DNA of 64,000 bases from an uncultured Bacteroidales bacterium (GTDB lineage: Bacteria > Bacteroidota > Bacteroidia > Bacteroidales > F082), in assembly GCA_946187645.1 (NCBI GenBank), contig CAMHRP010000020.1:1780-65779 (forward strand), in the 5' to 3' direction. Each line of letters begins with the position of its first letter. Within the stretch, counting starts at the first letter, position 1. The translations under genes were made by a program, and so were the position numbers. This document shows positions 40,613 to 59,663 of the stretch, piece after piece. A model generated the notes under the pieces. That model did no database searches, was not told where the DNA came from, and was given only the letters and a program-made list of their open reading frames with translations.

Positions 40613-40628
40613 GACAATCAGCGTTTTG

Positions 40629-40715
40629 CACCTTTTCAAGAGATAAACAAACCTATTTTATACACCTTTTCAAGAGATAAACGAGGTTGATCCTACACCT
40701 TTTCAAGGGATAATC
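40629..40715. repeat. three direct 20-nt repeats (CACCTTTTCAAGRGATAAHC) spaced 33-34 bp apart
   Basis: Copies at 40629, 40663 and 40696, immediately upstream of the ATPase paralog 2 start (40612). Confidence 0.8.
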
Positions 40716-43874: not shown

Positions 43875-46800
43875 ATGATGATTCAAGTCGGCAACATAAT
43901 TCAAAACCTGATTCCTTCCGAATCTGTTATCGTTACCAAGGTGCAGCCCTTGGGCAGTCACTTTTCCATCAGCTACAAAGGCGTGAACACCAACAAGGCC
44001 AGCAGCGTCATCATCGATGCCGCCAAGCTGGAAACGCTGGAGGTCGTTGCCGACGAAGGCAAGTTCAACTTCAAGGGCAACCCTGAGAAGTTCAAACTCT
44101 TCGCCGAGGCCGAGCGCATCAAGACGGCATACCAGTTCGACCCGCTCTTTGCCATCAACTGCAGCGTGGTCGACCCGCTACCGCATCAGGTGGAGGCCGT
44201 CTATAAGTTCCTATTGCCGCAGCCGAGAATCCGTTTCCTCTTGGCCGACGACACTGGTGCTGGTAAGACCATCATGACAGGTCTGCTCATCAAGGAAATG
44301 CTCATGCGCAAGATGGTCGAGCGCATTCTCATTGTCACGCCCGGTGGCCTCACCAAGCAATGGCAGGAGGATGAAATGGGCGTGAAGTTCAATCTGCCCT
44401 TCACCTTGGTCAATAGCCAAGTCTTCAATTCCGACCCCACCATCTTCCAAACCCACGACCGTTTGGTGGCTTCCATAGACCTCATTTGTCGCGACAAATA
44501 CATGAAGGTGCTCGAAAACACCAACTGGGACTTGGTCATCTTCGATGAGGCACACAAGCTATCGGCTTACGAATACGGTCTGAAGACCTATCGGTCGCGA
44601 AGATACGAGGCCGCTTTCATGCTCTCGCAACGATGCGAGCATGTCCTTCTTCTAACCGCTACGCCCCACCGTGGCCGCCAAGACACATTCAAGCGTCTGC
44701 TCCAGCTGTTGGATGAAGACATCTTCGCTACTGCCGACATCGCTGCCGACCGCGTCAAGGAACTCAGCCAAGACGGCCTGAACAAGTTCTTCATCCGTCG
44801 TCTGAAAGAGGACATGAAAGACTGGGAGGGCAACCCACTCTATGTGAAGCGTTCCACCAGAACGGTTTCCTACCAGCTGACACCCGAGGAAAAGAAACTC
44901 TACGATGCGGTTACCAAGTACCTCACCAAGCGCAAAGAAGAAGCCATCTCCACCAAAAACATCCATGTCACCCTTGCCCTCGCTGTCATGCAGCGTCGTT
45001 TGGTCAGCTCCATCTATGCCATCAAGAACACCTTGCAGCGCCGTTGGACGGCTTTGCAAGAGCTGGTCGATGAGCTTGACCGCAACCCAGCCCTTTGGTC
45101 TCAGAAGGAAAAGTTGGAAGAGCTTGTGGACTACGATAATGTGGATGACTACGAAGACCTTGATGACGACGAGAAGGATGCCTTGGATGCCATCCTTTGC
45201 GACCCCAAGAAACTGAAATGGTTCACCACGGCTTCAAGCCCCAAGGAGTTGAAGCATGAGGCACAGGAGGTGAAGACACTCTATGAGATGGCCAACAACC
45301 TCTATATGCAGAATCAAGAGGAAAAGAAATATCAGGAGTTGAAGCATCTGCTGAAGAGCCAAGGCGTTGTTGACGGCGAAAAGCTGGTGCTTTTCACTGA
45401 ACACAAGGACACCCTGCTTTATCTTCAAGACCGCCTGAAAAACAACGGCTACAAAGTCACCACCATCCACGGTGGCATGTCGGTTGATGAGCGTCGCGAG
45501 TCTCAAGTCAAGTTTATGACCGACCAGGCGCAAATCCTCATCGCTACCGATGCCGCTGGTGAGGGTATCAACCTGCAGTTCTGCCGACTGCTCATCAACT
45601 GGGACATCCCGTGGAACCCCAACCGACTGGAGCAGCGCATGGGGCGTGTCCACCGTTATGGCCAAAAACGCGATGTCCTCGTCTTCAATATGGTTGCCGA
45701 CAACACCCGCGAAGGTCAGGTGCTGGCCAAGTTGTTACAGAAACTTGACAACATCCGCGAGGACTTGGGCGACGACCGCGTCTATGATGTCATTCAAGAT
45801 GTGCTGAAAGGCATTTCCCTCGAAGACATCATCTCCTCGGTCTTCAATGGCCAGCCCACTCAGTTTGATGCTTTCATCGACCAGGACAAAGACCAAATCC
45901 GCGACCTCTTCAAGAAGAAAATCGAGGAAAACACCAAGTCGATGGCCATCAGCAAGGTCGATTTCAAGGATGCCCAACTGCTGAAGGAAGACTCCGATGA
46001 AAAACGGCTCCAGCCTATCTACATCCGCCTCTTCTTCGAAAAGGCGTTCCGTTATCTTGGTGGCGAGTATGAGCAAGTCAAAGAGGGCATCTATCGCATC
46101 AACAAGGTGCCTGCCGTGATTTCCGACCGCCTCCGCGACAACTACAAGATTTACTCCGACAATGTCACGAAGCTGCTTTTCTGCTTCGACAAGCATATCT
46201 TCCTCGACTATAGCAACGCCAGTTCCCTCATGGGCAAGGCGCACTACATCAACCCGGGCAATCCGCTTTTCGATTGCTTGGTCGATACCGTTCGCGACCT
46301 CTATCGAGACGAGATGATGAAGGGCACCGTCTTGGTTTCGCCCGACGATAGGGATGCCTATCTGGCCTTCTATGTCAAGAACCAAATCACCGACAACCGT
46401 CCTTCCAAGGAAGGCGACAATGTGGCCAACGAGAATCTGGCTTTGGTGTGTAAGGATTCGGATGGCAACTTCTCCGTCACCTCTCCCGCCAAACTGATCG
46501 ACCTCGACATCCCGACGCAATACGCCAAGGAAATCACACCGCCCGAAGTGGAGGACGAGCAGGATGTCATGGCTTGGTCGTTTGAGAAGATTGCCATGCC
46601 GCTCTTCGAGAGCACCAAGCAGAAGGTGGAGGAAGACAACGAAGCCCGTCGCCAGTATCTCGAAGAAGCCTTCAATCGGGTGATTGAAGACTTGGACGGT
46701 GAAATCAACGAGCTTCAAGGCAAGACCTTGATGAACGACAACGAAAAGCTTCAGGAGAAGCTGCAACGCAAATATGCCCTGCGGTATCAGGCAGAGCAAA

Positions 46801-47309
46801 AGCGACAGGAAAGGCTTCACAGCCTCGAAAAGATGGTGGAGTTGCAACAGCGCACCCCCGAGGTACTAGGCTGCGCCTATGTCGTGCCGCTCAACCAAAT
46901 GGAATACAAAAGCCATTTCGGCATGAGCCGAGACGACGAGGTGGAAGCCATCGCCATGAACGAAGCCATGAAATACGAAAAGCAAGAAGGACGCATCCCC
47001 ACCGATGTCTCAAAGGACAATGTGGGCTACGACATCCGCAGCACTGCAACCGATGGGCAGAAACGCTACATCGAAGTGAAAGGCCGTGCCGCCACCGATG
47101 GCGTGATGCTCTCCGAAAACGAGTGGAACCGCCTCACCCAATTGGGCAAGCGCGCTTGGCTCTACATCGTCACCGACTGCAAAACCCATCCCACCCTACA
47201 TATCATCAACGACCCAGGCAACACCCTCGATTTCGAAAAGACCGTCAAGGGCGTTCAGTATTACCTCCCGCTCGAAGAGTGGAAAGCACATGAAAATCTA
47301 AACCAATGA
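43875..47309 (+). CDS. SNF2-family helicase with C-terminal DUF3883 (restriction-endonuclease-like) domain
   Basis: LLADDTGAGKT, VIFDEAHKL, LLTATP, ATDAAGEGINLQ, QRMGRVHRYGQ. C-terminal GYDIRS..RYIEVKGRA..LSENEW..WLYIVTDC. Confidence 0.9.
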   Translation: MMIQVGNIIQNLIPSESVIVTKVQPLGSHFSISYKGVNTNKASSVIIDAAKLETLEVVADEGKFNFKGNPEKFKLFAEAERIKTAYQFDPLFAINCSVVDPLPHQVEAVYKFLLPQPRIRFLLADDTGAGKTIMTGLLIKEMLMRKMVERILIVTPGGLTKQWQEDEMGVKFNLPFTLVNSQVFNSDPTIFQTHDRLVASIDLICRDKYMKVLENTNWDLVIFDEAHKLSAYEYGLKTYRSRRYEAAFMLSQRCEHVLLLTATPHRGRQDTFKRLLQLLDEDIFATADIAADRVKELSQDGLNKFFIRRLKEDMKDWEGNPLYVKRSTRTVSYQLTPEEKKLYDAVTKYLTKRKEEAISTKNIHVTLALAVMQRRLVSSIYAIKNTLQRRWTALQELVDELDRNPALWSQKEKLEELVDYDNVDDYEDLDDDEKDALDAILCDPKKLKWFTTASSPKELKHEAQEVKTLYEMANNLYMQNQEEKKYQELKHLLKSQGVVDGEKLVLFTEHKDTLLYLQDRLKNNGYKVTTIHGGMSVDERRESQVKFMTDQAQILIATDAAGEGINLQFCRLLINWDIPWNPNRLEQRMGRVHRYGQKRDVLVFNMVADNTREGQVLAKLLQKLDNIREDLGDDRVYDVIQDVLKGISLEDIISSVFNGQPTQFDAFIDQDKDQIRDLFKKKIEENTKSMAISKVDFKDAQLLKEDSDEKRLQPIYIRLFFEKAFRYLGGEYEQVKEGIYRINKVPAVISDRLRDNYKIYSDNVTKLLFCFDKHIFLDYSNASSLMGKAHYINPGNPLFDCLVDTVRDLYRDEMMKGTVLVSPDDRDAYLAFYVKNQITDNRPSKEGDNVANENLALVCKDSDGNFSVTSPAKLIDLDIPTQYAKEITPPEVEDEQDVMAWSFEKIAMPLFESTKQKVEEDNEARRQYLEEAFNRVIEDLDGEINELQGKTLMNDNEKLQEKLQRKYALRYQAEQKRQERLHSLEKMVELQQRTPEVLGCAYVVPLNQMEYKSHFGMSRDDEVEAIAMNEAMKYEKQEGRIPTDVSKDNVGYDIRSTATDGQKRYIEVKGRAATDGVMLSENEWNRLTQLGKRAWLYIVTDCKTHPTLHIINDPGNTLDFEKTVKGVQYYLPLEEWKAHENLNQ

Positions 47310-50300
47310 AAGCAAAGAAACTCATAGAAGTGGCCATGCCGATTAAGGAGATTTCGGCAGAGAGCGTCCGCGACAAGTCGATTCGTCACGGTCATATTTC
47401 AACCCTGCACCTGTGGTGGGCGCGTCGTCCCTTGCCCGTGTGTCGTGCCGTGGTGTTCGCCAGCCTTGTGCCCGACCCCTTGGATGAGCACTGCCCGCAA
47501 GCCTTCAAAGACGCTGTGGCCGACTTGCTCAAAAGCGATACCTACAAACCCTACGACGACATCCCCTATACTACGGTCGTTGACAAGATGGACGACACCC
47601 CTCGTCACCGTCTGATGATGTTCATCGGCAAGTTCTCCGACAAATGCCAGAAGAACATGAATGCCGGAAAAGCCACTTCACCTGCCGAACAGCTTTCTGC
47701 TGGTTCTCTTATCAAGTGGGAGAACAAGAACAACGAGGCGGTGCTGGGCATTGCCCGTAAGTTGATTTGGGTGGCTTACAACGCCGACAAAGACGCTTCG
47801 CTTTCGTATGAGCGGTTGAGCAAGGACTTCGACCATGCCTATTCAGCCATCCATGAGGCCGAAAAAGCCCTTTATGAGTTGACCGACCGTCACAAGGCAA
47901 CACCCGAAGTGCAGCAGGCCGAAGCCCGTTTGCAAAAAGCCATTGATGATTTCCAGCAGCGTATGCCCAGCGTATTCGACCCCTTCGCGGGTGGAGGTGC
48001 CATCCCACTCGAAGCCGCCCGTTTGGGCTGCCGCAGCTATGGCAACGACATCAATCCTGTGGCGCACATCATCGAGCGTGGTTCTGCCGAATTCCCTCAA
48101 AAGTACGGCAAGCCTATTCGTTATACCGAAACCGAGTTTCGCCGCATCTATGGCAAAGAAGGCGTAGATATGTTGGCCGAAAAAGGCTTTGCCTTCTTCG
48201 ATGGCTTTGTTGAGATTCCCAACCGTCTGGCTTGGGATGTGGAGTTCTATGCCAAACGCATCCTTCGCGAAACTGAAAAGGAAGTGGGGTGGATGTATCC
48301 AGCGGACGAAAATGGGAATAAGCCTATTGCATTTTATTGGGTGAGAACAGCTAAATGCTCAAATCCTAGTTGTGGGGCTATTGTTCCAATGTTAAAAGGC
48401 TTTGATTTAGTGCATACTAACTCTAAACAGTTTTATTTAGATCCGACAATTGAAGGCAAGAGCATTAGTTTTTCAATTAAACAAGGAAGAAGTTCATCAT
48501 CAAGTTGGAATAATCGTGGAAATGTTACATGTCCTTGTTGTGGAAGCCTTACGAGTGTGGGCCAAGTAAAAGAACAATCCAAAAAGAATCGACTTTCACC
48601 AATTCTAGTTGCTACTATCTACGAAACAAATAATGGGAAAAAGTATGGAATACCTACAGCAAAGCAAATCAAAGTGCTTTCAACCCCCATTGAAGTTATA
48701 GATAGGCCAACGGAAAGTATGCAACGAAATTCAAATGGTGGTGATACCTTTCCTTGGGGATTTACAAAATGGGGCGATTTGTTTTCAGATAGGCAATTAT
48801 TCATGCTCTCTCATTTTGTCAACCAAATTAAAGGAATTGGACGATTATTGGATGATGAAAAATATGGGAATATCATCGAGACCTATTTAGCTCTTTGGTT
48901 TGATAGAATTGCTTTAATTAACACTTCATTTAGTAGGTATGATACAAGTAGAGAAAATGTACAACATATGTACAATCGTCAAGCTATTGCCATGGTTTCA
49001 GATTATCCTGAATCTAATCCTTTTTGCGACAGTTCAGGCTGTGCTCTAAATCAGTTGGATTGGGTATTAAGATATATAGAATCTGAAAGCCCTAATTCAT
49101 ATAGTGCCAACTTTGCTAATGCTTCTAGTGGAGATAAAGAACAATTCGAAAAGAAACAACTATCAGTTGTGGTTACTGACCCTCCTTATTATGATGCCAT
49201 TGCTTACGGCGATATATCAGATTTTTTCTATATCTGGATGAAAAAGATTTTGTGCGAAATATATCCACTGAATTTTGCAACCCCACTTACCCCAAAGACT
49301 GAAGAATGTACTGCGTTAAGACACCATCATAATGACAATGAAACTGAAGCGAAAAAACACTTTGAAAACAAATTGACTGACATTTTCGATGCAATTGAGA
49401 GACAAACTTCTGATGTGGTAAGTATTATGTTTGCTCATCAAAGCACAGAGGCGTGGACTACACTTTGCAATTCCATCTTGAATGCTAGGATGAATATTAC
49501 AGGTAGTTGGCCAATGGATACCGAATTGGCCAATAGAACTTTAGCTATATCAAGTTCCGCTTTGGAGTCCTCCGTCACCGTTTCTTGTCGTCCATCCCAG
49601 CGTCAAGGCTTTGCAGAATACAAGGAGGTGAAGAAAGCCATCGAAAAGAATGTGAAGGAAGAAGTGAACAAACTCTACGACTTAGGCTTCCGTGATGCCG
49701 ACTTGCTCACAGCTTGCTTCGGTCAGGCCGTTAGTGAGTTTGGCAAATACGAGGTGGTCGAAAAGAGCAACGGCGACCTTGTGTCAGTAGCTGAATTGCT
49801 CGAACTAGCTCGAGAAGCAGCCTTTAATGCCTTGCTCGAAGGAGTCGAAGGTGACAATTTTACCAAGTTCTATATTGGATGGCTTCGATTAAATGGTATG
49901 AAAGAAACTGACTACGATGATGTCACCAAGTTCACCCGCGTCGGCCTGCCTATCGATGTCAAGGAAGTCTTCAGCCAAGGTCTGCTGGTCAAGGAGCCGA
50001 GTGGCAACAAACAACATCTGGCCACTGCCGCCGAGCACCTCGAAGGCGACCACATTGCTGGCACCCGTGCCACCGATTTGCTCATCGACCAAGCCCACCG
50101 AGCTATCTTGATTTATAAGGACGGAAACCGTGCCGCCCTGCTGAAACTGCTACGCGACATCAACGCCCAAGATGCCAACGCTTCCTTCTGGAGGCTCTTG
50201 GCTTCCTTGAAAGAGCTGTTGCCCGCCTGCGATGACTTAAAGCAAGTCCAAGGCTTGCTACAAAACGGCGAAGACCTCCGTCAATCCAGCCGTCAGACCG

Positions 50301-50338
50301 AACAACCCACATCTACCCAAACAACAATCGAGTTCTAA
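47306..50338 (+). CDS. DUF1156-domain DNA methyltransferase with Zn ribbon (COG1743 type)
   Basis: N-terminal IRHGHISTLHLWWARRPL, SAM motif FDPFAGGGAIPLEA (47975-), CSNPSC...CPCCGS, motif IV VVTDPPYYD (DPPY at 49178-49189). The start overlaps the helicase stop (ATGA). Confidence 0.9.
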   Translation: MKAKKLIEVAMPIKEISAESVRDKSIRHGHISTLHLWWARRPLPVCRAVVFASLVPDPLDEHCPQAFKDAVADLLKSDTYKPYDDIPYTTVVDKMDDTPRHRLMMFIGKFSDKCQKNMNAGKATSPAEQLSAGSLIKWENKNNEAVLGIARKLIWVAYNADKDASLSYERLSKDFDHAYSAIHEAEKALYELTDRHKATPEVQQAEARLQKAIDDFQQRMPSVFDPFAGGGAIPLEAARLGCRSYGNDINPVAHIIERGSAEFPQKYGKPIRYTETEFRRIYGKEGVDMLAEKGFAFFDGFVEIPNRLAWDVEFYAKRILRETEKEVGWMYPADENGNKPIAFYWVRTAKCSNPSCGAIVPMLKGFDLVHTNSKQFYLDPTIEGKSISFSIKQGRSSSSSWNNRGNVTCPCCGSLTSVGQVKEQSKKNRLSPILVATIYETNNGKKYGIPTAKQIKVLSTPIEVIDRPTESMQRNSNGGDTFPWGFTKWGDLFSDRQLFMLSHFVNQIKGIGRLLDDEKYGNIIETYLALWFDRIALINTSFSRYDTSRENVQHMYNRQAIAMVSDYPESNPFCDSSGCALNQLDWVLRYIESESPNSYSANFANASSGDKEQFEKKQLSVVVTDPPYYDAIAYGDISDFFYIWMKKILCEIYPLNFATPLTPKTEECTALRHHHNDNETEAKKHFENKLTDIFDAIERQTSDVVSIMFAHQSTEAWTTLCNSILNARMNITGSWPMDTELANRTLAISSSALESSVTVSCRPSQRQGFAEYKEVKKAIEKNVKEEVNKLYDLGFRDADLLTACFGQAVSEFGKYEVVEKSNGDLVSVAELLELAREAAFNALLEGVEGDNFTKFYIGWLRLNGMKETDYDDVTKFTRVGLPIDVKEVFSQGLLVKEPSGNKQHLATAAEHLEGDHIAGTRATDLLIDQAHRAILIYKDGNRAALLKLLRDINAQDANASFWRLLASLKELLPACDDLKQVQGLLQNGEDLRQSSRQTEQPTSTQTTIEF

Positions 50339-50410
50339 CCCCCAGCGTCCCGCGTCCCTTTGTCCCGCGTCCCGCATCCAAAATAACGAACAACAAAATA
50401 CCATCGAGAT

Positions 50411-53400
50411 ATGAATGAGAATGTATTCAAAGCTTTAGGCGTTTTCCTCGAGACTATGCGTCCTTATGTGGTCAGCATCTTGCAGAAGTATTTTCCCAAC
50501 GAGCCATGGGAAGGCGTGATGTTTGCCAAGCTCAGCGCCGATAAGCAGGCTTCATGGAACCGTAATGCAAAAGAAATGCAAAAGACCGGGGCACCAAGCA
50601 TGGGTCTCATCGACTTTAGCAACCTCACTTCTTTTGCTTTCAGCTTCAAGGAGTTGCTGGTAAAGGAATTTGGCGAATCCAAGCAGGCCAACAAGTTCAT
50701 CAGCTATGTGCAAGAGCTTGAAGACACCCGCAACAAGTGCCAGCACTACCAGTCTATTGATGAGGACGAAATTGTCCGCACCTATAGCAACATCAAGATG
50801 GTGGCGCGTCTCATTGGCGATGATGACCTCTACGACGAGGTGACCCGCATTTCCGCTCCCAAGGCCAAGCCCGTGGAGCAGCCATCCGTCAAGACTATTG
50901 AGGTGCGTCCTGAATCCATTATAGATGACAATAGCCAAGTGACGCCGTGGTTTGCCAATGTCATTCCCCACTACGACATCAGCCGTTCCATTCTCGATGA
51001 GTCCATCTTTGCCGCCAACCTCGGTGATGTGGCTATGGGTACAGCTCCCGAGGTCTATACCAACTCGGCATCCTTCTTTGAAAAAACCTATGTCACTCAC
51101 GGTCTGCGCGACATCGCCACCCGTGTGGTCACCGCCTTGAATGGTGGAGTGACCGAAAACCGCGTCATCTCCCTGAAGACAGGTTTTGGCGGTGGTAAGA
51201 CCCATACCCTCATCACGCTTTACCATATCGTCAAATGCGGCTCCAAAATGGCTACGATGGAGTCGTGCCGCGACTTACTCAAAGAAGGCTTGGTGCCTGA
51301 GTTCGACAACGCCAAGGTCGCTGTCTTCACCAACAACACCACCGATGTGGCGCAAGGTCGCCAAACCGACGACGGCCTTACCATCAACACCATCTGGGGC
51401 GAAATTGCCTATCAACTGGGAGGCGTTGAGGCCTACAAGGTGGTGGAAGAAAACGACCGAGAACGCATTGCTCCTTCGAGTGGCGTCTTCCAGCCCATCC
51501 TCGAAACCACCAAGCCAGCCATGATTCTCATTGATGAGCTGGCCGACTATTGCGTCAAGGCTTCAGCCAAAAAAGTGGGCGCAGGCAACCTCTATTCCCA
51601 GACGCTCAGTTTCGTGCAAACGCTCACCGAGATGGTCTCTTCCGTGTCCAGATGCCTTCTCATTGTCACCTTGCCCGAAAGCGTCGTAGAAGTCGCTTCT
51701 ACCGCCATCGGCCAGGACATTCTCACTTCGCTGGAACAGCGCGTGATTCGTGTTGGCTCTGCCATCAAACCCATCGAGGACGAAGAAGTGTTTGAGGTGG
51801 TGCGCCGCCGTTTGTTCGACGAGATTAAGGACTATACTGTGGTTGACGATGTGGCGCGTCGCTACCAGCGCATGTACCACAACCGTTACAACGACCTTCC
51901 GGCGCAGAGCGACAACAATGCCTACGCCGACAAGATTCGCAAGTCTTATCCCTTCCATCCCGAGTTGATTGAGATGTTCCGCTTGCGTTGGGGCAGCGAC
52001 CCCCATTTCCAACGCACCCGTGGCGTGTTGCGCCTCTTGGCCTCAATAGTTCAAGATTTGTGGCGTCGCCGCCAAAATCTGACTGGAACCCAATCCTTGA
52101 TACATACCAGCGACATCAATCTTGAAAACTTGCCCACACTCACAGGCACCATCACCAACCTGATGGGAAGCCAGTGGGAAACCGTCATGCACGCCGATGT
52201 CTATGGCTCTGCCAGCAATGCCTTTAAGATTGATTCCAACGAAATGGGTTCCAACACTGGCCTTTACAGCCTGACGCAAGGCATTGCAAATACCATCCTT
52301 TTGGCATCCATCGGTACTTTTGCCAAAAATGGTGTCACAATCAAAGAGCTGAAACTCTGTATGTTGAAACCCAACGCCTTCAACCATAACGACATTGATG
52401 GGGCTTTGAACAAGTACGAACAAGTGGCTCATTATCTCCACTATTCTACTATCGGCGAGAAGCGATATTGGTTCCACTCCAAGCCCAACATCAATATCAT
52501 CTTGAATCAGGCCAAGAACGAAATTAACGACGATGAAAAACGCACCGAAATCGTCAGGCGTTTGAAGAACAGTTGCTCCTTCATCCCCGACCTGAATGTG
52601 TTGATAGCACCTACAGGCGACATCCCCGAGCAGAAGTCGCTCACCTTGGTTTTGATGGGACCAGAATACGCAGTTCCGATTGACAGGCTGAATGCTCCCG
52701 TCGAAAGCTATGTGAAAACCAATTCGCTGAAGCGTGGCGAGGCCGACCGCCTCTATCGAAACACAATGTTTTATCTGGTCTGCTCCGAGCAAGGCAAGTC
52801 CAACCTTGACGGCAAAATGCGCGACTACTTGGGCTGTGTCAAGGTGCAGAATGTCTATTCTGCTTCCATCGAGAAAGACCAGAGGGATGAAATCCAAAAG
52901 CGTAAGGATGCTTTCGACAAGGAAGCCTTCGATGCATTGGTTCAAGCCTACGCCGTAGTGTTACGCTACACCTTCGACAAGGGCATCCTCCGTTACGATG
53001 TGAAAAACTATGCCTCCGATTTCTCGTCACAGGTCATGCAAAACATCCTTCCCGAGCTGAAAGAGGAAGAGTGGCTGCTCGATGCTGTGGGTCGTGGTGT
53101 CTTGGCCAACAACAACCTACTGCCAACGGGTGAGAATCCCATCCGTGTCAAGGACTTCTATGAAGCCTTCTTAAAGTTCGACGACAAGCCGATGATTACT
53201 GGCTCCGAAGCCATCATCCAAACCATCAACCGCTATTGTTCCGAGGGTTTGTTCAATGTGGCATCGGGCGAAAAAGGCAATTACGACAAGGTGTATAGCA
53301 AAGAAAGAGTCCCGTTCCTCAATGTCACCGACCCCGATTATTGGTTGGTCGACAAGAGCATAACCAAGGAAGAGCCAGCTCCAACACAACCTACTGAACC

Positions 53401-53695
53401 CGACCCAACACCCAATCCAACACCTCCGACAGGAACTGGCGGCGAACCCGAGCCAACACCTGGCGGCACGAAGCACTACAAGAAAATCAAAATCAGTGGT
53501 AGTGTCCCCAAGGAGCAATGGACGCAACTGTGGACAAGCTTCCTCGTCCCCTTGAAGGACAACGGCCTGCACATCACCGTCGAGTTCGAAGCTCAGACCA
53601 CATCCAAAAACCCCTTGGACGAAAACTCCCATGTCATCAAATGCGTCAAGGAGTCTGCCGCACAACTTGGACTGGATTTTAAGGCAGAAGAATAA
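50411..53695 (+). CDS. DUF499-type AAA ATPase (COG1483) with N-terminal HEPN-like module
   Basis: TRNKCQHY (R107-x4-H112, nt 50729-50746) in a helical N-terminal ~140 aa. Walker A GFGGGKTHT, Walker B MILIDELADY, P/T-rich linker and a small C-terminal domain. Confidence 0.85.
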   Translation: MNENVFKALGVFLETMRPYVVSILQKYFPNEPWEGVMFAKLSADKQASWNRNAKEMQKTGAPSMGLIDFSNLTSFAFSFKELLVKEFGESKQANKFISYVQELEDTRNKCQHYQSIDEDEIVRTYSNIKMVARLIGDDDLYDEVTRISAPKAKPVEQPSVKTIEVRPESIIDDNSQVTPWFANVIPHYDISRSILDESIFAANLGDVAMGTAPEVYTNSASFFEKTYVTHGLRDIATRVVTALNGGVTENRVISLKTGFGGGKTHTLITLYHIVKCGSKMATMESCRDLLKEGLVPEFDNAKVAVFTNNTTDVAQGRQTDDGLTINTIWGEIAYQLGGVEAYKVVEENDRERIAPSSGVFQPILETTKPAMILIDELADYCVKASAKKVGAGNLYSQTLSFVQTLTEMVSSVSRCLLIVTLPESVVEVASTAIGQDILTSLEQRVIRVGSAIKPIEDEEVFEVVRRRLFDEIKDYTVVDDVARRYQRMYHNRYNDLPAQSDNNAYADKIRKSYPFHPELIEMFRLRWGSDPHFQRTRGVLRLLASIVQDLWRRRQNLTGTQSLIHTSDINLENLPTLTGTITNLMGSQWETVMHADVYGSASNAFKIDSNEMGSNTGLYSLTQGIANTILLASIGTFAKNGVTIKELKLCMLKPNAFNHNDIDGALNKYEQVAHYLHYSTIGEKRYWFHSKPNINIILNQAKNEINDDEKRTEIVRRLKNSCSFIPDLNVLIAPTGDIPEQKSLTLVLMGPEYAVPIDRLNAPVESYVKTNSLKRGEADRLYRNTMFYLVCSEQGKSNLDGKMRDYLGCVKVQNVYSASIEKDQRDEIQKRKDAFDKEAFDALVQAYAVVLRYTFDKGILRYDVKNYASDFSSQVMQNILPELKEEEWLLDAVGRGVLANNNLLPTGENPIRVKDFYEAFLKFDDKPMITGSEAIIQTINRYCSEGLFNVASGEKGNYDKVYSKERVPFLNVTDPDYWLVDKSITKEEPAPTQPTEPDPTPNPTPPTGTGGEPEPTPGGTKHYKKIKISGSVPKEQWTQLWTSFLVPLKDNGLHITVEFEAQTTSKNPLDENSHVIKCVKESAAQLGLDFKAEE

Positions 53696-54010
53696 ATGAG
53701 ATAAATAGGACAGCCCTGTCTCGATGCCCCGAAGGGGCGATAGCTACCACGGAGGCAGTCGGTGTGAATCCCTGCCGAAATGATAAACAATAAGAACACC
53801 TTCGACCAACCTGATGTCGTCAAGTATGAGCAGGAGCGGGGCTTGGTGGGATTGATGGCGACGGATAAACAATAGGGTTGTTGTGAAGATAGAGGAGTTG
53901 ATGGAGTTGAGTTTATTGTTTCTTTAGAGTGAAAGTTTGAGTTTAAAGGTAATAAACAGTAGTTTTAATCCGAACCTCAGAGATTGTATGTTTGTTTCAC
54001 TTTAATTCTA

Positions 54011-54018
54011 TATATTTG
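54011..54018 (+). promoter_or_regulatory. -7 box (TATATTTG) dedicated to the low-GC two-gene cassette
   Basis: TAnnTTTG 50 nt before the ATG at 54069. Confidence 0.5.
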
Positions 54019-54068
54019 CAATCTCAAAAGTGGTCCATAATAGTATTGTTTTTAATAAATGTATAAAG

Positions 54069-55241
54069 ATGAAATTAAATAATTTATTAATTTTACACGA
54101 CAAGAGAACTAATTGTATTTCTGTCTCTGCTACAACGGGAATTAAAGAGTATATTGCATGGTTTGAGGAATATGGCAAACAGAATAAGTTAGATGAACAA
54201 AGAACAGTGCTGAATACACGTTCTGGAAATATGATTCGTCATCGGTTAATTGAAGATCTAAAACAAGGTGCGCTTATACCACCATTGGTTATCGGTCTGG
54301 CTTTAAATGAGATGCCAAAATTGGAAAATGATGCTGATGTGAATGATGTTTTTGAAGCGAACAAAAGTGAAGCAACTGTTATTGACGGTATGCAACGCTC
54401 AGAGGCTTTGTCACAGGCTCTTCGTGAAAACTCGCAAATTGCTGATAGCACATTAAGGATAGATTTATGGATTGCTAAAGATACGGTTAGTCTAATTTAT
54501 AGGATGCTTGTCTTGAATACAGGACAAGTTCCATGGGACGTTAAAAGGCAAATGGAGGTAATTTACAAGCCTCTCGTTTCAGAGATAAGAAATAACGTGC
54601 CCAATATTAAGATTATCGTAAAAAACGATAATGAACGACGTACTGGACCTGGTGAATACCAAGCATCAAATATGATAGAATTGTTCATCGCTTTTACGAG
54701 TCGCAAAGAGATTGTATCACCTACTGAGCGTATAGCGGATGATTTTATTCGTTTGGATGTGGCAGATATGGCGGGGCAACCTGGAGTGTCGGAATTATTT
54801 TATAGAACTATCAGAATGATGGTCCAATTAGATTCTGCTTTTTCGAAATACCAAGGCACTGCTCAGTATGAAGAATCAGATCTCTTCAAAACAGGGAAAG
54901 ATATTTTCTCAAAGGTTACGGCACAGGTGGGTTTTGTTGTTGCTGTGGCGCAAAAAGTGATAGGAATGCCGGGAATGAATGAAAGAGACCAAGAGTTTCA
55001 AAACAGAACTATCATAGAGGTGGAAAAAAAAATCGAGCGGATCTGCGATAAAGTTTCAAAACTATCAGACGAAAAACTTGCTACATTTATGGCTTTTGAC
55101 TATTTGAATGAGCAAATCAGGAAATTGCCAACAAAAAAAATCGGCAATGCTCAAAGAGAATTTTTCAAGGCTGCTTTCAGAGCACTAATAGATACAACAA
55201 ATGATGTTGATAATTTATCATTTGCCTGGTTGGCATATTAA
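54069..55241 (+). CDS. ParB/Srx-fold protein of the DndB/DGQHR/DUF262 type
   Basis: QRTVLNTRSGNMIRHRLIEDLKQGALIPPLVIGLAL, ATVIDGMQRSEAL (DGMQR at 54384-54398), YRMLVLNTGQVPW, then a long helical C-terminal half. Low GC. Confidence 0.6.
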   Translation: MKLNNLLILHDKRTNCISVSATTGIKEYIAWFEEYGKQNKLDEQRTVLNTRSGNMIRHRLIEDLKQGALIPPLVIGLALNEMPKLENDADVNDVFEANKSEATVIDGMQRSEALSQALRENSQIADSTLRIDLWIAKDTVSLIYRMLVLNTGQVPWDVKRQMEVIYKPLVSEIRNNVPNIKIIVKNDNERRTGPGEYQASNMIELFIAFTSRKEIVSPTERIADDFIRLDVADMAGQPGVSELFYRTIRMMVQLDSAFSKYQGTAQYEESDLFKTGKDIFSKVTAQVGFVVAVAQKVIGMPGMNERDQEFQNRTIIEVEKKIERICDKVSKLSDEKLATFMAFDYLNEQIRKLPTKKIGNAQREFFKAAFRALIDTTNDVDNLSFAWLAY

Positions 55242-55246
55242 ACAAA

Positions 55247-56317
55247 ATGAGTAGAAGCGTGAACAAATCTCTAAAGCCTATTGTTGAATATCTAGCTAAC
55301 CGTATTCCTGAAATAACGGATACGAATAATTTCCAGATTTTTCTTAATGAAATCGAGTATGATCGAATAGAAAATAATAAAACAAGAAAACTGGCATCGT
55401 TTCGTCCAGACCCTAATAGATGCACGGCATTATATATTTGCGATGACAATTATTATTTTATTGAGTCAGGTTTTCCTGAATTATCAGATACTCCTGATTA
55501 CATCGGTGTAGATAATGAACAAGTGCTAGATTTGTATTATTTATATATCGCTGAGAATAAAATAGAAGCAAAAGAAGAATTAGATTCCGCATATATTTAT
55601 GATAGGGTCTTTAATGGAGATCCTATTCAGTATGAAACGTTGAGAGAGATATATCCATTGATTAGCATATATAAGGTATCTTGTGACGTAGATGTTCGTG
55701 CCATTACAAACGAACAAGCAAATAGCATACTTAAGAAGCTTACCCTAAAATATATTTGTCTTACATATCAGGTTCAATCCACAGATATTGTTAAACTATC
55801 AAAACAAACAATTGTTCTATTTTCTCAGATTTCTGACCAAAAGGATGACAACATCCCGATAGATAATGTGCTTCGGAGCATTTTGGCTTATCAATGGCAA
55901 TTTGTATTTTTGGATTTATATCGTTGTATAGAAAGACTTTCAGTGATCGGATGGGTCCATGATTATTCTCAATATTTCCAAACAGGTTTGTCGAAAGAGG
56001 AAATGTTTAATAGAATAAAAAAACGTGAAATGAAATATAATGAGGGCGAGATTTTGGATCATTTATTCACTCTATTAGATAACGACACGAAAATGTCTTT
56101 AGCAAGTATTACAAAAAAAAATGCGGCTTCTTTTATCTATAGTCAACGTAATGGAATAGTTCATTATCAAAAAACAGATATTAATCATAGTGATACTGAA
56201 TGGAATACTATAATTGTGTTTTTGCTTAATGCCATAATACAACTGTATAACAACTTGTCTGATGATATAAATGATTTAGGCGATATAGAATACTCAAGAA
56301 ATAAAACAGTGATGTAA
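55247..56317 (+). CDS. hypothetical protein with C-terminal HEPN-like R-x4-H motif
   Basis: 356 aa, 5 nt after the upstream stop. IYSQRNGIVHYQK (R301..H306, nt 56147-56164) is flanked by predicted helices (WQFVFLDLYRCIERL, EWNTIIVFLLNAIIQLY). The N-terminal 200 aa are unrecognisable to me. Confidence 0.6.
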   Translation: MSRSVNKSLKPIVEYLANRIPEITDTNNFQIFLNEIEYDRIENNKTRKLASFRPDPNRCTALYICDDNYYFIESGFPELSDTPDYIGVDNEQVLDLYYLYIAENKIEAKEELDSAYIYDRVFNGDPIQYETLREIYPLISIYKVSCDVDVRAITNEQANSILKKLTLKYICLTYQVQSTDIVKLSKQTIVLFSQISDQKDDNIPIDNVLRSILAYQWQFVFLDLYRCIERLSVIGWVHDYSQYFQTGLSKEEMFNRIKKREMKYNEGEILDHLFTLLDNDTKMSLASITKKNAASFIYSQRNGIVHYQKTDINHSDTEWNTIIVFLLNAIIQLYNNLSDDINDLGDIEYSRNKTVM

Positions 56318-56657
56318 TTGAAAACTAAAGCGAAATCAATCTAGAAATTGCATTTTAATTTTTTTATCATCTTGAAAAACGAGTTCAATATTTGCCTTGA
56401 GGTTGCGTTATTATTGGTCGTAGCTATTGATTCTAAATATGTTGACAAGTTTCCGAAGGGATGACATGCCTGCTGCACTGGTTCCAAAATGGAACAGGTG
56501 AGGCTGTTTTCGCGTGGAGTGCGGGAACGCCAAACCTTGACTGGGTTGGGCGCGCGGGCCACGGCCGACATGGCGGGGAAGTGTCCGCTTTGTGTGTTGG
56601 GTCCGATGATGTCGGCCTTGATTCTTCGGTTCCTTCTCATCAAGGAGAAGGAACAAG

Positions 56658-56817
56658 AAAACCGCAGCCACAGATGCCCACCATCGCACAGTCCAGCATC
56701 GGCATGACATGGCTGCTGGCTGGTGACTCGGAGCGATGACATGGCTGCTGCAACACCCCCGAAAAAGAAAAAAAGCCTATCCTCTTGCGGGTTCATGGAA
56801 AAGATGTATTTTTGCGG
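56658..56817. repeat. dispersed repeat element, copy 1 (about 160 bp, contains 2x ATGACATGGCTGCTG and a -7 box)
   Basis: It aligns with 57152-57310 at roughly 90% identity by eye. TATTTTTG at 56807-56814. Confidence 0.8.
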
Positions 56818-56893
56818 TGTCGTTCCGGCACGTTAAGGACGTACAGCGTCACGACCTGAAAGGGCAGCAGATAGCACCGGAAGACGAAAAACA

Positions 56894-56940
56894 TTGGCGG
56901 TTAGGGCCTAAACAGGTTGTTAACCGCCAATTTTTGTTTT
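56894..56940. terminator. perfect 10-bp hairpin with T-run (possibly bidirectional)
   Basis: TTGGCGGTTA-loop-TAACCGCCAA followed by TTTTTGTTTT, with A-rich sequence on the 5' side. Confidence 0.6.
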
Positions 56941-57081
56941 ATAGAAAGTCTTCATGGCCAACCTTTTCCTTCCCATGCGAGTGCATTCCACATAATAGTA
57001 TTCTTTTTCTAATGACCTACGATAGACAACTGTGTCGGGATATTTCCCTTGTACGATTTCGTCAGCGCCAGCAATAATCAT
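56920..57081 (-). CDS. possible small protein or gene remnant (53 aa)
   Basis: MIIAGADEIVQGKYPDTVVYRRSLEKEYYYVECTRMGRKRLAMKTFYKTKIGG. The composition is protein-like, it lies downstream of repeat copy 2 and ends in the hairpin. No family recognised. Confidence 0.3.
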   Translation of the reverse strand: MIIAGADEIVQGKYPDTVVYRRSLEKEYYYVECTRMGRKRLAMKTFYKTKIGG

Positions 57082-57091
57082 AGGAATAAGG

Positions 57092-57310
57092 CTGTAGTCG
57101 TTTGTTGTCGTTTGCCGTCGGATATGGTGTTGAAAAAGAGATAAATACAATAAACCGCAGCCATAGATGCCCGCCATCGCACAAACCCACGTCGGCATGA
57201 CATGGCTGCTGGCTGGTGACTCGGAGCGATGACATGGCAGCTGCAACACCCCCGAAAAAGAAAAAAACTTATCCTCTTGCGGGTTCATGGAAAAGTTGTA
57301 ATTTTGCAGG
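57092..57310. repeat. dispersed repeat element, copy 2 (full length, about 219 bp)
   Basis: The 5' part matches copy 3 (57985-58103) and the 3' part matches copy 1. TAATTTTG at 57299-57306. Confidence 0.8.
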
Positions 57311-57407
57311 CAGAAATAAGTCAGGAATCAGGTATGACTTTCCGAAAGTCCGCGCGGTGGCCTATCGTTTCAGTACGACTTACCTCCTGCATTCTGCGGC
57401 AAACCAT

Positions 57408-57466
57408 ACGGATGGAATTAGGATGAGAGAACACCGGAACAGGACTCTTTAGATTCCATCCGTTTT
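57408..57466. terminator. perfect 11-bp hairpin with short T-run
   Basis: ACGGATGGAAT-34 nt-ATTCCATCCGT followed by TTTT, 7 nt from the stop of the 57473-57904 gene. Confidence 0.55.
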
Positions 57467-57472
57467 CTATTG

Positions 57473-57904
57473 TCATGCCTGAATGACAGTAATACAGTAT
57501 TGTACTTTGTCTTTGGTTCGTCTTACTATACCGACCATCAGTTTGACTTCACCAACACCAGGGAGATCATATTTCATCCACAATAGTTTGTTGAATTGCT
57601 TTTGATTTTTGTCTTTAATCTTGGCTTTTACTGTTCGATACTTCTTTGCCATTGTTAAGATGGAATCCAATTGGAGTACTGCCAAGGTGGAAAGATAGCT
57701 TTTCGCCGCTTGATGACTGGTCTCATCTATTGAGACAAATCTAATATTGATGAAGTCCTTCAGAGACAGTTTGAACCTTTTCAGTGACGGGTTCTTCTTT
57801 TTCCAATCTTGATAAAATTGCCAAATGATTTGTTTCCTGATCTTGAAATCTTCTTTGCCATCGCCTGACGGAATCTCAATAGTTTTGTTGTCTTGCGCTT
57901 CCAT
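57473..57904 (-). CDS. hypothetical protein (143 aa, lysine-rich)
   Basis: Clean ORF preceded by a CATCTTTG promoter-like box and followed by a hairpin. No motif I can name with confidence. Confidence 0.6.
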   Translation of the reverse strand: MEAQDNKTIEIPSGDGKEDFKIRKQIIWQFYQDWKKKNPSLKRFKLSLKDFINIRFVSIDETSHQAAKSYLSTLAVLQLDSILTMAKKYRTVKAKIKDKNQKQFNKLLWMKYDLPGVGEVKLMVGIVRRTKDKVQYCITVIQA

Positions 57905-57984
57905 AATAGATATGAATTATCGTTCTCGCTGCAAAGATGAAAACTCTGTCAAGATAAAGACGTTGATTAAACGTTTGTTGTCGA

Positions 57985-58103
57985 CTGTAGTCGTTTGCTG
58001 TCGTTTGCTGTCGGATATAGTGTTGAAAAAGAGATAAATACAATAAACCGCAGCCATAGATACCCGCCATCGCACAAACCCACGTCGGCATGACATGGCT
58101 GCT
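57985..58103. repeat. dispersed repeat element, copy 3 (3'-truncated)
   Basis: CTGTAGTCGTTTGCTGTCGTTTGCTGTCGGATATAGTGTTGAAAAAGAGATAAATACAATAAACCGCAGCCATAGATACCCGCC...ATGACATGGCTGCT matches copy 2. Confidence 0.8.
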
Positions 58104-58420
58104 TCGCTCTATATCATCTGACTTCATGACTTGGTATCCATTTAACCACGACCGCTTTCACGGAATGCTGAAGTTGCTGCCCATACACCCCATCCTTCAC
58201 GTTTCTGAACCCCATAGTCTTTTAAGTTGAGATATGGGTGTAAAAAAGTTGAGATATGGGTCTTAACCTTTCGTGCACTCTCAGCTCCCGCTTTAGTTTG
58301 CATCTCCCAACTTTTAACTGCTAACTGAACAACTTTCAGCATTAACAGGAGGGGAGAATATTGTGACGTAAATGACAAAAAAATTTTTGTTTTTATGTTT
58401 GTAAAAATACAAATATGTTG

Positions 58421-58428: not shown

Positions 58429-58567
58429 CAAACCAATAGTCCAAAGGAACAATCACAAACTTGAAAACTCCTGCGAGCATCGACAACTGCAGGAGCGTAA
58501 TACTATGCCCTGTCGGTTTGCAAACGCGGAGTCCTTTGGTTTTCTCGACCTTTTCACACGTGCGAAC

Positions 58568-58702
58568 GGACGGAAAAAAACGTGGATCCCTCTTTTTGCA
58601 ATGCAAAAAGCCAGACCAGCGTCTTGCTGCGCCTTTTTGCACATGCAAATGGACGGAAAAAACCACGGATGTCCTTTTTTGCAATGCAAAAAGCCAGTCC
58701 AA
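58568..58702. repeat. two about 52-nt direct repeats (83-bp period), each with a TTTTTGCA-A-TGCAAAAA palindrome, plus a third TTTGCA-CA-TGCAAA palindrome between them
   Basis: GGACGGAAAAAAACGTGGATCCCTCTTTTTGCAATGCAAAAAGCCAGACCAG (58568-) versus GGACGGAAAAAACCACGGATGTCCTTTTTTGCAATGCAAAAAGCCAGTCCAA (58651-). Palindromes at 58593-58609, 58636-58649 and 58676-58692. Confidence 0.8.
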
Positions 58703-58853
58703 TGGTTTTGTCGACCTTTTCGCAATAAAAACGGGCAGAGGTGAGGACAGAAGTATAGGTTAGGAAAGTTGTAGGCTATTCTTATTGTATTTATCCGTCT
58801 AAACTGCACAAATCTGGTGCAATCTTCAATTATCCCAAATACTAAATCGACAA

Positions 58854-59663
58854 TCAATCTTGTACATCAGAAGAAACCGGCTTTTTCTTCCCAAACAACC
58901 ACTCAAACAACCCCGGTGTAGAAAAAGCCGCATCCCAACATACATGACCCATTTCGGGATAAGTGACCAGAATGGCCTCTTTGCTTCCGACTTCTTTCAA
59001 TACATTATACATCTGTATGCTCCGCGAAGGCATGACCACCTCATCGAGCAAACCATGAAAGATATAAACGGGCACATCTTTCATAGCCTCGGCGTATGCC
59101 GGGTCTCCCCCACCGCAGATGGCAATAGCCGCCGCAAACCTCTCCGGCCAACGTTGCAAGGCATCCCAAGTGCCAAAACCTCCCATGGAAATGCCGCAAA
59201 TGTAAACTTGAGTCGAATCCACGACACCAACATCAATTAGGCTGTCAAGCACGGCCATCACGCCACGCAGCTCTGACGTGGTCATGCTGTCCATCGTGTG
59301 CTCTGGCAAGCTCCAATCGGTATTCGCCCAGCGTCTGTCATTTGGGCATTGCGGAGCCATCAACAGGAAGGGATAACGGTTTGTCACGGTGTCGTCAAGG
59401 AAATACTTGATGCAATGCTTCAACTGCATACAATTGTCGTTGCCGCGTTCTCCTGCACCATGCAGGAAGATGACCAAAGGCAAGGCTTCAGTCATCGTAT
59501 CGGCTTTCTCTGAGCGATAGAGTCGAAACGGAAGCGTATCATTGCCTTCGATGTGATGACGGGCTTCAAACAGGCTTGTATCGGGCAATTGATTTTCGTT
59601 TTCTTGAGCCAACAAAAGAGGGCCGACCATCAACGTTAGCAGTAAAAAGAGGTTATGTTTCAT
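58854..59663 (-). CDS. alpha/beta hydrolase (carboxylesterase / prolyl-oligopeptidase-family esterase), secreted
   Basis: Signal peptide, LVIFLHGAGERGNDN, and the nucleophile elbow GISMGG. Confidence 0.85.
   Translation of the reverse strand: MKHNLFLLLTLMVGPLLLAQENENQLPDTSLFEARHHIEGNDTLPFRLYRSEKADTMTEALPLVIFLHGAGERGNDNCMQLKHCIKYFLDDTVTNRYPFLLMAPQCPNDRRWANTDWSLPEHTMDSMTTSELRGVMAVLDSLIDVGVVDSTQVYICGISMGGFGTWDALQRWPERFAAAIAICGGGDPAYAEAMKDVPVYIFHGLLDEVVMPSRSIQMYNVLKEVGSKEAILVTYPEMGHVCWDAAFSTPGLFEWLFGKKKPVSSDVQD

Follow-up and report, generated by a model that had tools for sequence, protein, structure and literature searches.

The window analysed here is a stretch of 64,000 nt from contig CAMHRP010000020.1 of an uncultured Bacteroidales bacterium (lineage F082; assembly GCA_946187645.1), and the element in question is a cassette of two genes with low guanine-cytosine (GC) content that lies 3' of a Hma operon. 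Two open reading frames (ORFs) on the + strand, 54069-55241 and 55247-56317, are separated by 5 nt, exactly as described in a first-pass annotation made from the letters of this DNA alone. Their products are referred to as protein 1 and protein 2. The cassette is probably a divergent Dazbog system (dzbA-dzbB), that is, an autonomous, horizontally mobile two-gene anti-phage module. Its features are as follows.

53880..56450, no strand: low-GC block of ~2.6 kb with the cassette, its leader and its trailer (GC 0.30-0.40 against ~0.5 in the flanks)
54011..54018, + strand: TATATTTG, a candidate -7 promoter box of the Bacteroidota type (TAnnTTTG), 51 nt upstream of the ATG
54069..55241, + strand: dzbA-like gene, 390 aa from the ATG, with a probable N-terminal divergent DUF262/ParB-like nucleoside triphosphatase (NTPase) domain and a C-terminal domain
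54384-54398, + strand: DGMQR (D106-R110), the DUF262 'DGQQR' nucleotide-hydrolysis motif of DzbA, located by translation
55247..56317, + strand: dzbB-like gene of a divergent subfamily, 356 aa
55247..55786, + strand: N-terminal alpha/beta domain of DzbB, ~residues 1-180, the fastest-evolving part, modelled with AlphaFold2 (AF2) at a predicted local distance difference test (pLDDT) of 94.8
55802..56278, + strand: all-helical HEPN-like domain of DzbB, ~residues 186-344, placed by the DzbB model match, hhalign and a sub-threshold HEPN_Apea match
55916..55933, + strand: LYRCIE (Y225, R226, E229), putative active-site acidic and basic residues, from conservation and translation
56147..56164, + strand: RNGIVH (R301-H306), an R-x4-H motif of the HEPN catalytic type, from conservation and translation

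The mechanical ORF of protein 1 opens at a GTG (54030), before the ATG at 54069; the ATG is supported as the start because homologues begin at the equivalent position (MKLSNIV...). A switch in composition is visible in the sequence at ~53880 and ~56450. As the first-pass annotation had claimed, the cassette is poorer in GC than its neighbours, with values of 0.30-0.40 over 53750-56250 against ~0.47-0.56 in the flanking DNA; the gene pair itself has 34.2% GC, compared with 49.0% in the remaining window. Matches to TAnnTTTG number 53 in the whole window against 33.6 +/- 5.3 expected, an enrichment in keeping with promoters of the Bacteroidota type. The AT-rich cassette and its edges hold another five (53987, 55433, 55527, 55751, and 55905), so the box at 54011-54018 is plausible and unproven. 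Scans for consensus terminators and sigma-70 promoters returned background levels only, a hairpin 3' of hmaC was no better as a terminator than shuffled sequence (z = -1.27), and no Rfam family was matched in the cassette region. An 18-nt direct repeat, CATAATAGTATTGTTTTT (54036-54053) and CATAATAGTATTCTTTTT (56991-57008), agrees at 17/18 positions and brackets the Dazbog genes; it may mark past recombination or have arisen by chance. Apart from this single unproven repeat, no flanking direct repeats convincingly marked an insertion.

Protein 1 aligned with the PADLOC model of DzbA (PDLC03835) over nearly its full length (E 4.8e-59, residues 8-387, profile positions 7-382 of 393) and with PHROG family phrog_27603 (E 1.3e-104). 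Its Pfam match to GmrSD_N (DUF262, PF03235) reached 24.2 bits (E 4e-5), under the 33.2-bit cut-off. Within a set of 76 DzbA relatives, for which all counts given here are among the matches listed, GmrSD_N was matched by 37 (E <= 1e-3) and other families by none; we therefore read the N-domain of DzbA as a probable DUF262 of divergent type rather than a DndB domain. The first-pass annotation had likened protein 1 to both ParB-fold families, DUF262 and DndB. The DUF262-type DGxQR protein was borne out, and the DndB/DGQHR part was not: DndB (PF14072) scored 16.3 bits against a cut-off of 29.1 and DGQHR (TIGR03187) 14.4 against 58.85, and no relative matched DndB at E <= 1e-3. DUF1524 was found in neither window protein and in none of the 76 relatives.

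All the motifs quoted earlier for protein 1 (EQR, PPLVIGLAL, VIDGMQRSEAL, and LVLNTGQVPW) are present in its translation, and the residue numbers D106/R110 and, in protein 2, R301/H306 are correct. Residues Q44, R45, D106, G107, Q109, and R110 are invariant in the 76 sequences (among the matches listed), and D106, G107, Q109, and R110 lay outside the search pattern used to collect them. The invariance of YRM..LNTGQ.P is no evidence, because that motif was the pattern with which the census loci were fished. Identity of the window DzbA to B. cereus DzbA is only ~25%. A sequence search of the PDB with the DzbA profile returned no relatives, and tblastn of both proteins against a phage collection gave no match, despite the match of DzbA to a PHROG family.

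Protein 2 was connected to DzbB by several routes. Its C-terminal 171 aa matched PADLOC PDLC03836 DzbB (E 2.5e-6, profile positions 205-333 of 341), as did the consensus of its subfamily (E 9.1e-8) and a single subfamily member, P0011 (E 7e-6). Close homologues form 12 clusters at the 90% identity level, 37-95% identical to protein 2, among 5.8 billion proteins, and all 12 come from metagenome or assembly sources. A wider search of 1.84 billion representatives with the family profile retrieved 385 clusters at E <= 1e-3, mostly of 340-380 aa; 103 of the 136 relatives tested from this retrieval matched the PADLOC DzbB model (best E 5e-14). Alignment by hhalign of the 13-sequence subfamily with a 15-sequence group of B. 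cereus-type DzbB gave 85.4% probability (E 5.8e-6) over 147 columns, superposing FLDLYRCIERL on FMTLYQVIESL and YSQRNGIVHYQ on YKVRNTIVHRQ, respectively. Conversely, a jackhmmer search started from the canonical DzbB of a B. cereus plasmid (PADLOC E 3.8e-48) pulled in protein 2 of the window.

To judge by these alignments, protein 2 is a DzbB whose N-terminal domain appears to have diverged past recognition. This domain had no Foldseek match in PDB or BFVD, and hhalign gave no alignment of it to Bacillus-type DzbB. Searches of PDB sequences with the subfamily profile and with a wide DzbB profile returned no relatives. With an alignment of only 13 sequences, AF2 gave a poor first model of protein 2 (pLDDT 62.8), and the Foldseek search made with it was meaningless; the second, from 141 sequences, reached a pLDDT of 94.8 and a predicted template-modelling score of 0.92.

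The two genes are inherited together. In the close subfamily of protein 2, a DzbA of 385-386 aa, 58-61% identical to protein 1, is encoded immediately 5' in 7/7 independent loci. The flanks of these seven loci all differ (AbiH and TIR, a YobI ATPase, PRTase-CE with a reverse transcriptase, radical-SAM with SNF2, and polysaccharide genes). The pair is a self-contained unit, and its horizontal acquisition, read from the sequence in the first-pass annotation, is probable. A second metagenome contig, L130, repeats the Hma-Dazbog arrangement with 95.9% DNA identity over 53184-57211; coming from the corresponding locus of a close relative, it adds no independent evidence.

For a broader census, GTDB species genomes were scanned with the hand-made pattern YRM..LNTGQ.P, which gave at least 119 loci from many phyla, and all the loci listed encode DzbA-like proteins. 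Patterns picked automatically from an alignment of DzbA fell in its N-terminal part, and neither genome contigs nor viral contigs contained a match to them. Among the matches listed, a limit that holds for all census figures below, the 3' end of dzbA fell inside the fetched stretch in 104 loci and was followed by a same-strand ORF in 94. This ORF was DzbB-like in 84 of the 94; the remaining 10 were 60-184 aa long, and in six cases the fetched locus stopped before the ORF did. The order dzbA then dzbB was also found in three plasmids. The first-pass annotation had asked whether the partnership is conserved, and the two genes were adjacent in every related locus read.

Pairwise identities of DzbA and DzbB across 75 loci are correlated (r = 0.84, Mantel 0 of 999), and DzbB is less conserved than DzbA in 99.9% of locus pairs, with a mean identity of 18% against 31%. 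Adjacency and this correlation together indicate that dzbA and dzbB travel together, with DzbB evolving about twice as fast. No member of the window subfamily appeared among the GTDB loci listed, of which L040, with 47% DzbA identity, came closest. Like the window, the subfamily loci have a Bacteroidota-like appearance. For roughly one half of the DzbA loci (scores of ~200 bits with the A5 profile), the DzbB partner was missed by the window-derived profile and caught by the B. cereus DzbB jackhmmer search, and several of the missed partners have RC...H instead of RN...H; with two such detection groups, Dazbog has at least two deep partner lineages.

To evaluate the C-terminal domain of DzbB as a possible ribonuclease (RNase), we compared its conserved residues with those expected of a HEPN site. 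The stretch IYSQRNGIVHYQK is found in protein 2, and the RNxxxH reported in its helical C-terminus by the first-pass annotation proved to be a conserved R-N-x3-H at a helix end. Across 141 DzbB-superfamily sequences E229 and R301 are invariant, and Y225, R226, E266, Y298, N302, V305, H306, W319, and Y334 are conserved in at least 90%. Among the matches listed, all 70 complete DzbB partners, from many phyla, carry R-x4-H within their last 120 residues; the pair that opens the motif is RN in 56/70 and otherwise RC, RS or RH. In HEPN domains, which are all-helical bundles, the motif spans the end of core helix 3 and the beginning of the loop that leads to helix 4, with a polar residue following the R and an acidic residue upstream (PMC3710099). 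Motif placement was judged on the order of secondary structures in the AF2 model, in which R301-V305 end a helix (293-305), H306 opens a loop and a helix at 316-336 comes next, while additional helices (250-283) fit the usual HEPN insert. The polar residue (N302), the upstream acidic residue and the helix-end position are thus all present in protein 2. The upstream acidic residue, E229 or E266, departs from the typical E-x3-[KR] form.

In profile comparisons, HEPN_Apea was the top HEPN family match, though below its cut-off each time, for four C-domain queries, namely three independent consensus sequences and the window's own, ranking just behind LepB_GAP_N with the window fragment. Weak matches among the 136 relatives involved HEPN_Apea (9/136), Cas13a (3/136) and HEPN_RiboL-PSP (2/136, E 5e-4), and CARF_HEPN was also weakly matched among the HEPN-type profiles. 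HEPN_MAE_28990 was matched by none of the DzbB relatives. We consider the C-terminus of DzbB likely to be a HEPN-like RNase domain; the sequence and secondary-structure signs agree with that family, and the fold comparison given below does not. Within the literature searched, no published link between Dazbog or DzbB and HEPN was found.

Several results weigh against the Dazbog and HEPN assignments. Searched whole, protein 2 escapes the DzbB model of PADLOC at a threshold as loose as E <= 10 and has no match in NCBIfam or PHROGs; in Pfam it matches HEPN_Apea alone (E 0.051). Its match to DzbB is confined to the C-terminal domain, with no homology to Bacillus-type DzbB found for the N-terminal one. 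The HEPN_Apea matches of the C-domain queries (16.7-23.1 bits, E 1e-4 to 1e-2) all fall under the 24.4-bit cut-off. Foldseek, which the first-pass annotation had proposed as a check on an AlphaFold model, recovered no solved or viral HEPN structure with the second AF2 model despite its high pLDDT (best E 0.46 in PDB and 0.07 in BFVD). The query was the whole-protein model and short all-helical domains are difficult for Foldseek, and we take this null to lower the HEPN claim without excluding a HEPN fold. Comparison by hhalign with the HEPN_Swt1 domain of HmaC in the same window gave 3.6% probability, with an alignment limited to the motif (16 columns); that template held only 4 sequences, because the homologue search with a short query gave 3 proteins. 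At the DNA level, the promoter ascribed to the cassette is only partly upheld, as the TAnnTTTG box is there and a single box at 54011 is not beyond chance; it is a plausible candidate for the cassette's own transcription. Finally, a dzbB deletion could not be transformed, 'possibly due to toxicity', and was grouped with the deletions of the antitoxins psyrA, shosA, and rmrA (Millman et al.), a point taken up below.

Dazbog is a validated two-gene phage defence in which DzbA carries DUF262 (Millman et al. 2022). The B. mycoides system turns toxic on expression of the cytosine methylase of phage SPR, phages that escape it lose CCGG methylation, and infection of Dazbog cells at high multiplicity of infection (MOI) leads to growth arrest, that is, abortive infection (Stokar-Avihail et al., 10.1101/2022.08.27.505566). 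How Dazbog works is still described as unclear in reviews from 2025-2026. The window pair shares with Dazbog of Bacillus donors such as B. mycoides GOE9 the gene order, similar protein sizes (~390 and ~360 aa), the full-length match to the DzbA model and a homologous DzbB C-domain with LY[RQ]xIE and YxxRNxxVH. It likewise sits in the kind of place where Dazbog is found, in defence islands and near methylase or restriction-modification (R-M) genes. On a B. cereus plasmid (L008, NZ_CP053952) a Dazbog pair lies within a few kb of dcm and NgoPII, and on a Roseobacter plasmid (L010, NC_008388) within a few kb of a cytosine methyltransferase; both echo the adjacency to Hma. What separates the window pair, a member of a rare Dazbog subfamily, from the Bacillus systems is the low DzbA identity given above, an unalignable DzbB N-domain, and a whole protein 2 that escapes the DzbB hidden Markov model (HMM). 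The window system is also known from sequence only, whereas abortive infection and the methylase trigger are properties of Bacillus Dazbog.

Other systems combine related parts. PD-T4-2 of E. coli ECOR65 (Vassallo et al. 2022) is a validated multi-gene system with a reported DUF262 component (PMC10952713, PMC12065111) and a reported HEPN component (10.1101/2024.10.26.620412; 10.64898/2026.02.22.705581). It has the DUF262 and HEPN domain logic in common with the window pair; the two were compared by description, with no homology shown. Neither window protein matched any PADLOC model besides DzbA and DzbB, and PADLOC-DB 2.0 presumably includes models of PD-T4-2. The first-pass annotation knew of no characterised system with such a pair. 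Its domain logic was largely right, and its claim of novelty failed on both counts, as the pair is a divergent Dazbog and PD-T4-2 is likewise reported with the two kinds of component.

In GmrSD, BrxU, and SspE, DUF262 is the NTPase/sensor part and requires a separate DUF1524 nuclease (PMC10952713). A ParB-like DUF262 NTPase domain with DGxQR is found in these proteins and, in a probable divergent form, in the window DzbA, and their role in sensing modified DNA is the one proposed here for DzbA. BrxU and GmrSD-like genes occur in or beside BREX and Hma, and the window cassette is likewise beside Hma. Unlike them, the cassette encodes no DUF1524/HNH nuclease, and its candidate effector is a separate HEPN-like protein; canonical Dazbog works by abortive infection, whereas GmrSD, BrxU, and SspE are modification-dependent nucleases that restrict directly. 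Menshen (NsnABC) also begins with a DUF262/ParB-like gene lacking DUF1524 and has separate polymorphic effectors (PMC12065111), but it comprises three genes, including the ATPase NsnB, for which the window pair has no counterpart. The HEPN-ParB neighbourhoods mentioned in the first-pass annotation are on record. The 2013 HEPN survey records the families RiboL-PSP-HEPN and MAE_28990 in operons with ParB, sometimes with DNA methylase genes (PMC3710099), and describes the HEPN-DUF499 protein now named HmaC (PMC3710099, Anantharaman et al.). The HEPN gene stands next to a ParB-like gene in those operons as the HEPN-like gene does in the window; the profile matches to HEPN_RiboL-PSP and HEPN_Apea are sub-threshold and establish membership of neither family.

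From these comparisons we infer a division of labour in which DzbA would be the sensor and DzbB the RNase, a proposal that we hold to be about evenly balanced. By analogy with the use of DUF262 in GmrSD, BrxU, and SspE, the ParB-like DUF262 NTPase domain of DzbA would detect a foreign-type DNA modification or the methylase activity producing it. Once triggered, DzbA would release or activate DzbB, and the HEPN-like C-domain of the latter, probably dimeric, would cleave cellular RNA, such that growth stops before the phage cycle completes. The fast-evolving N-domain of DzbB may mediate contact with the partner or the trigger. Positioned beside Hma, the cassette could act as a back-up against phages that modify their own DNA and so evade methylation-dependent defence. 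In this scheme, abortive infection as the phenotype and a methylase as the trigger are borrowed from canonical Bacillus Dazbog and may apply here by analogy. The family-wide form of the model, with DzbB as a HEPN RNase effector throughout and DzbA as an NTPase switch of the DUF262 type that permits RNase action when foreign-type DNA methylation is met, is offered tentatively, as a possibility that falls a little short of even.

The unobtainable dzbB deletion, in the company of antitoxin deletions, could instead mean that the polarity is reversed, with DzbA as the toxic effector (NTPase/nuclease) and DzbB as an antitoxin-like restraint or a sensor, whose R-x4-H would then have a regulatory or sensing role, such as binding RNA or processing it. 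The treatment of ParB-like domains as deoxyribonuclease (DNase) domains in R-M contexts (PMC3710099) agrees with this, as does the much faster evolution of DzbB, expected for the part that contacts phage factors. Characterised DUF262 domains, however, are the NTPase/sensor that needs a DUF1524 nuclease, and none is encoded here (PMC10952713). In addition, the R, N, H, and E of DzbB are strictly kept across phyla, which argues for a catalytic rather than a purely structural site, and the toxin of HEPN toxin-antitoxin pairs is the HEPN protein. We regard the reversed arrangement as unlikely, though it is the main rival. Far less probable is a direct, type IV restriction-like action, in which a complex of DzbA and DzbB would itself recognise and cut modified DNA of the phage, the host being neither killed nor arrested. 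The DUF262 lineage common to GmrSD, BrxU, and SspE, which attack modified DNA, the dependence of Dazbog on phage DNA methylation and the position beside a methylation-based system, as with BrxU in BREX, would all suit such an action. It is made unlikely by the absence from both proteins of DUF1524/HNH or any other recognisable DNase domain; with canonical Dazbog, moreover, cells infected at high MOI stop growing and the methylase by itself is enough to cause toxicity, and the DzbB site is of the type predicted for metal-independent RNases (HEPN).

A last alternative reads the pair as an accessory of Hma, its fourth and fifth subunits, or as a novel system unrelated to those described. The two genes do lie on the same strand as hmaC and 373 bp 3' of it, the arrangement recurs in L130, and standard thresholds give no PADLOC, Pfam, NCBIfam or PHROGs match for whole protein 2. 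Against this, seven subfamily loci and at least 119 wider DzbA loci stand in unrelated contexts without Hma, L130 is no independent case, as noted above, and homology to DzbA and DzbB is established by several routes. This reading is largely refuted and the most improbable of those considered. The reading of the cassette as a divergent Dazbog takes in the homology of both proteins, the adjacency and co-inheritance of their genes, and the conserved DGxQR of DzbA and R-N-x3-H plus Glu of DzbB.

The system itself is already known; what is new is the family-wide mechanistic hypothesis and a branch missed by current DzbB models. If true, the hypothesis would give Dazbog its first mechanistic model, and the conserved R-x4-H/Glu of DzbB together with the invariant DGxQR of DzbA offer two precise mutational handles on sensor versus killer. 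Standard HMM-based annotation misses the window subfamily because DzbB evolves about twice as fast as DzbA, and the prevalence of Dazbog, especially in poorly sampled lineages, may therefore be underestimated. A Dazbog directly behind Hma adds to the cases in which a system that senses modification is coupled to one based on methylation. Again if true, Hma and the pair would form a two-layer unit, in which defence based on methylation is joined by a trap for phages with self-methylated DNA.

The surroundings of the cassette form a defence island. Immediately 5' of it and on the same strand is a complete Hma operon (helicase-methylase-ATPase, 43875..53695 +), composed of the following genes.

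43875-47309, + strand: hmaA, helicase (PADLOC HmaA E 4.8e-208)
47306-50338, + strand: hmaB, DUF1156 methylase (PADLOC HmaB E 8.4e-131; Pfam DUF1156)
50411-53695, + strand: hmaC, HEPN_Swt1 and DUF499 ATPase (PADLOC HmaC E 1.6e-139; Pfam DUF499, HEPN_Swt1)

The cassette begins 373 bp after hmaC. This operon is the R-M-like neighbour noted in the first-pass annotation, which had also stated, correctly, that the usual dndACDE, ssp, and dpd partners are absent; none of these genes flanks the pair, whose upstream neighbours are HmaA, HmaB, and HmaC. Inside the HmaB ORF, GC drops to 0.34-0.39 over 48250-49500, compared with ~53% at the ends of the ORF, and this interior has the look of a module exchanged within the gene, possibly the one for target recognition. 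Just 5' of Hma, two genes on the - strand suit the defence-island setting, an ATPase gene with AAA_14 and DUF4143 (39263-40639) and a gene with Schlafen AlbA_2, HATPase_c_4 and a winged helix-turn-helix (41341-42801).

Repeats are frequent 3' of the cassette. A repeat of ~119 nt is present in three copies (56599-56717, 57092-57210, and 57985-58103), and one of 59 nt, at 56757-56815 and 57249-57307, encodes on the reverse strand a shared ORF start, MNPQED(R/K)(L/F)FF. The ORF at 56920-57288 (- strand) ends in a fragment of the PBECR3 toxin domain (Pfam E 8.4e-7, 29.3 bits against a cut-off of 30). Judged by their layout, the repeats in 56450-58110 resemble a stack of repeated 5' gene ends with varying 3' cassettes; no Rfam family was matched there. 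A second low-GC patch (~0.38-0.41) holds an ORF of 143 aa (57473-57904, - strand) without a Pfam match. Further on, in the intergenic region before an alpha/beta-hydrolase gene (58854-59663), an 83-nt unit is tandemly duplicated at 58549-58714 with 73% identity, and related shorter repeats lie close by.

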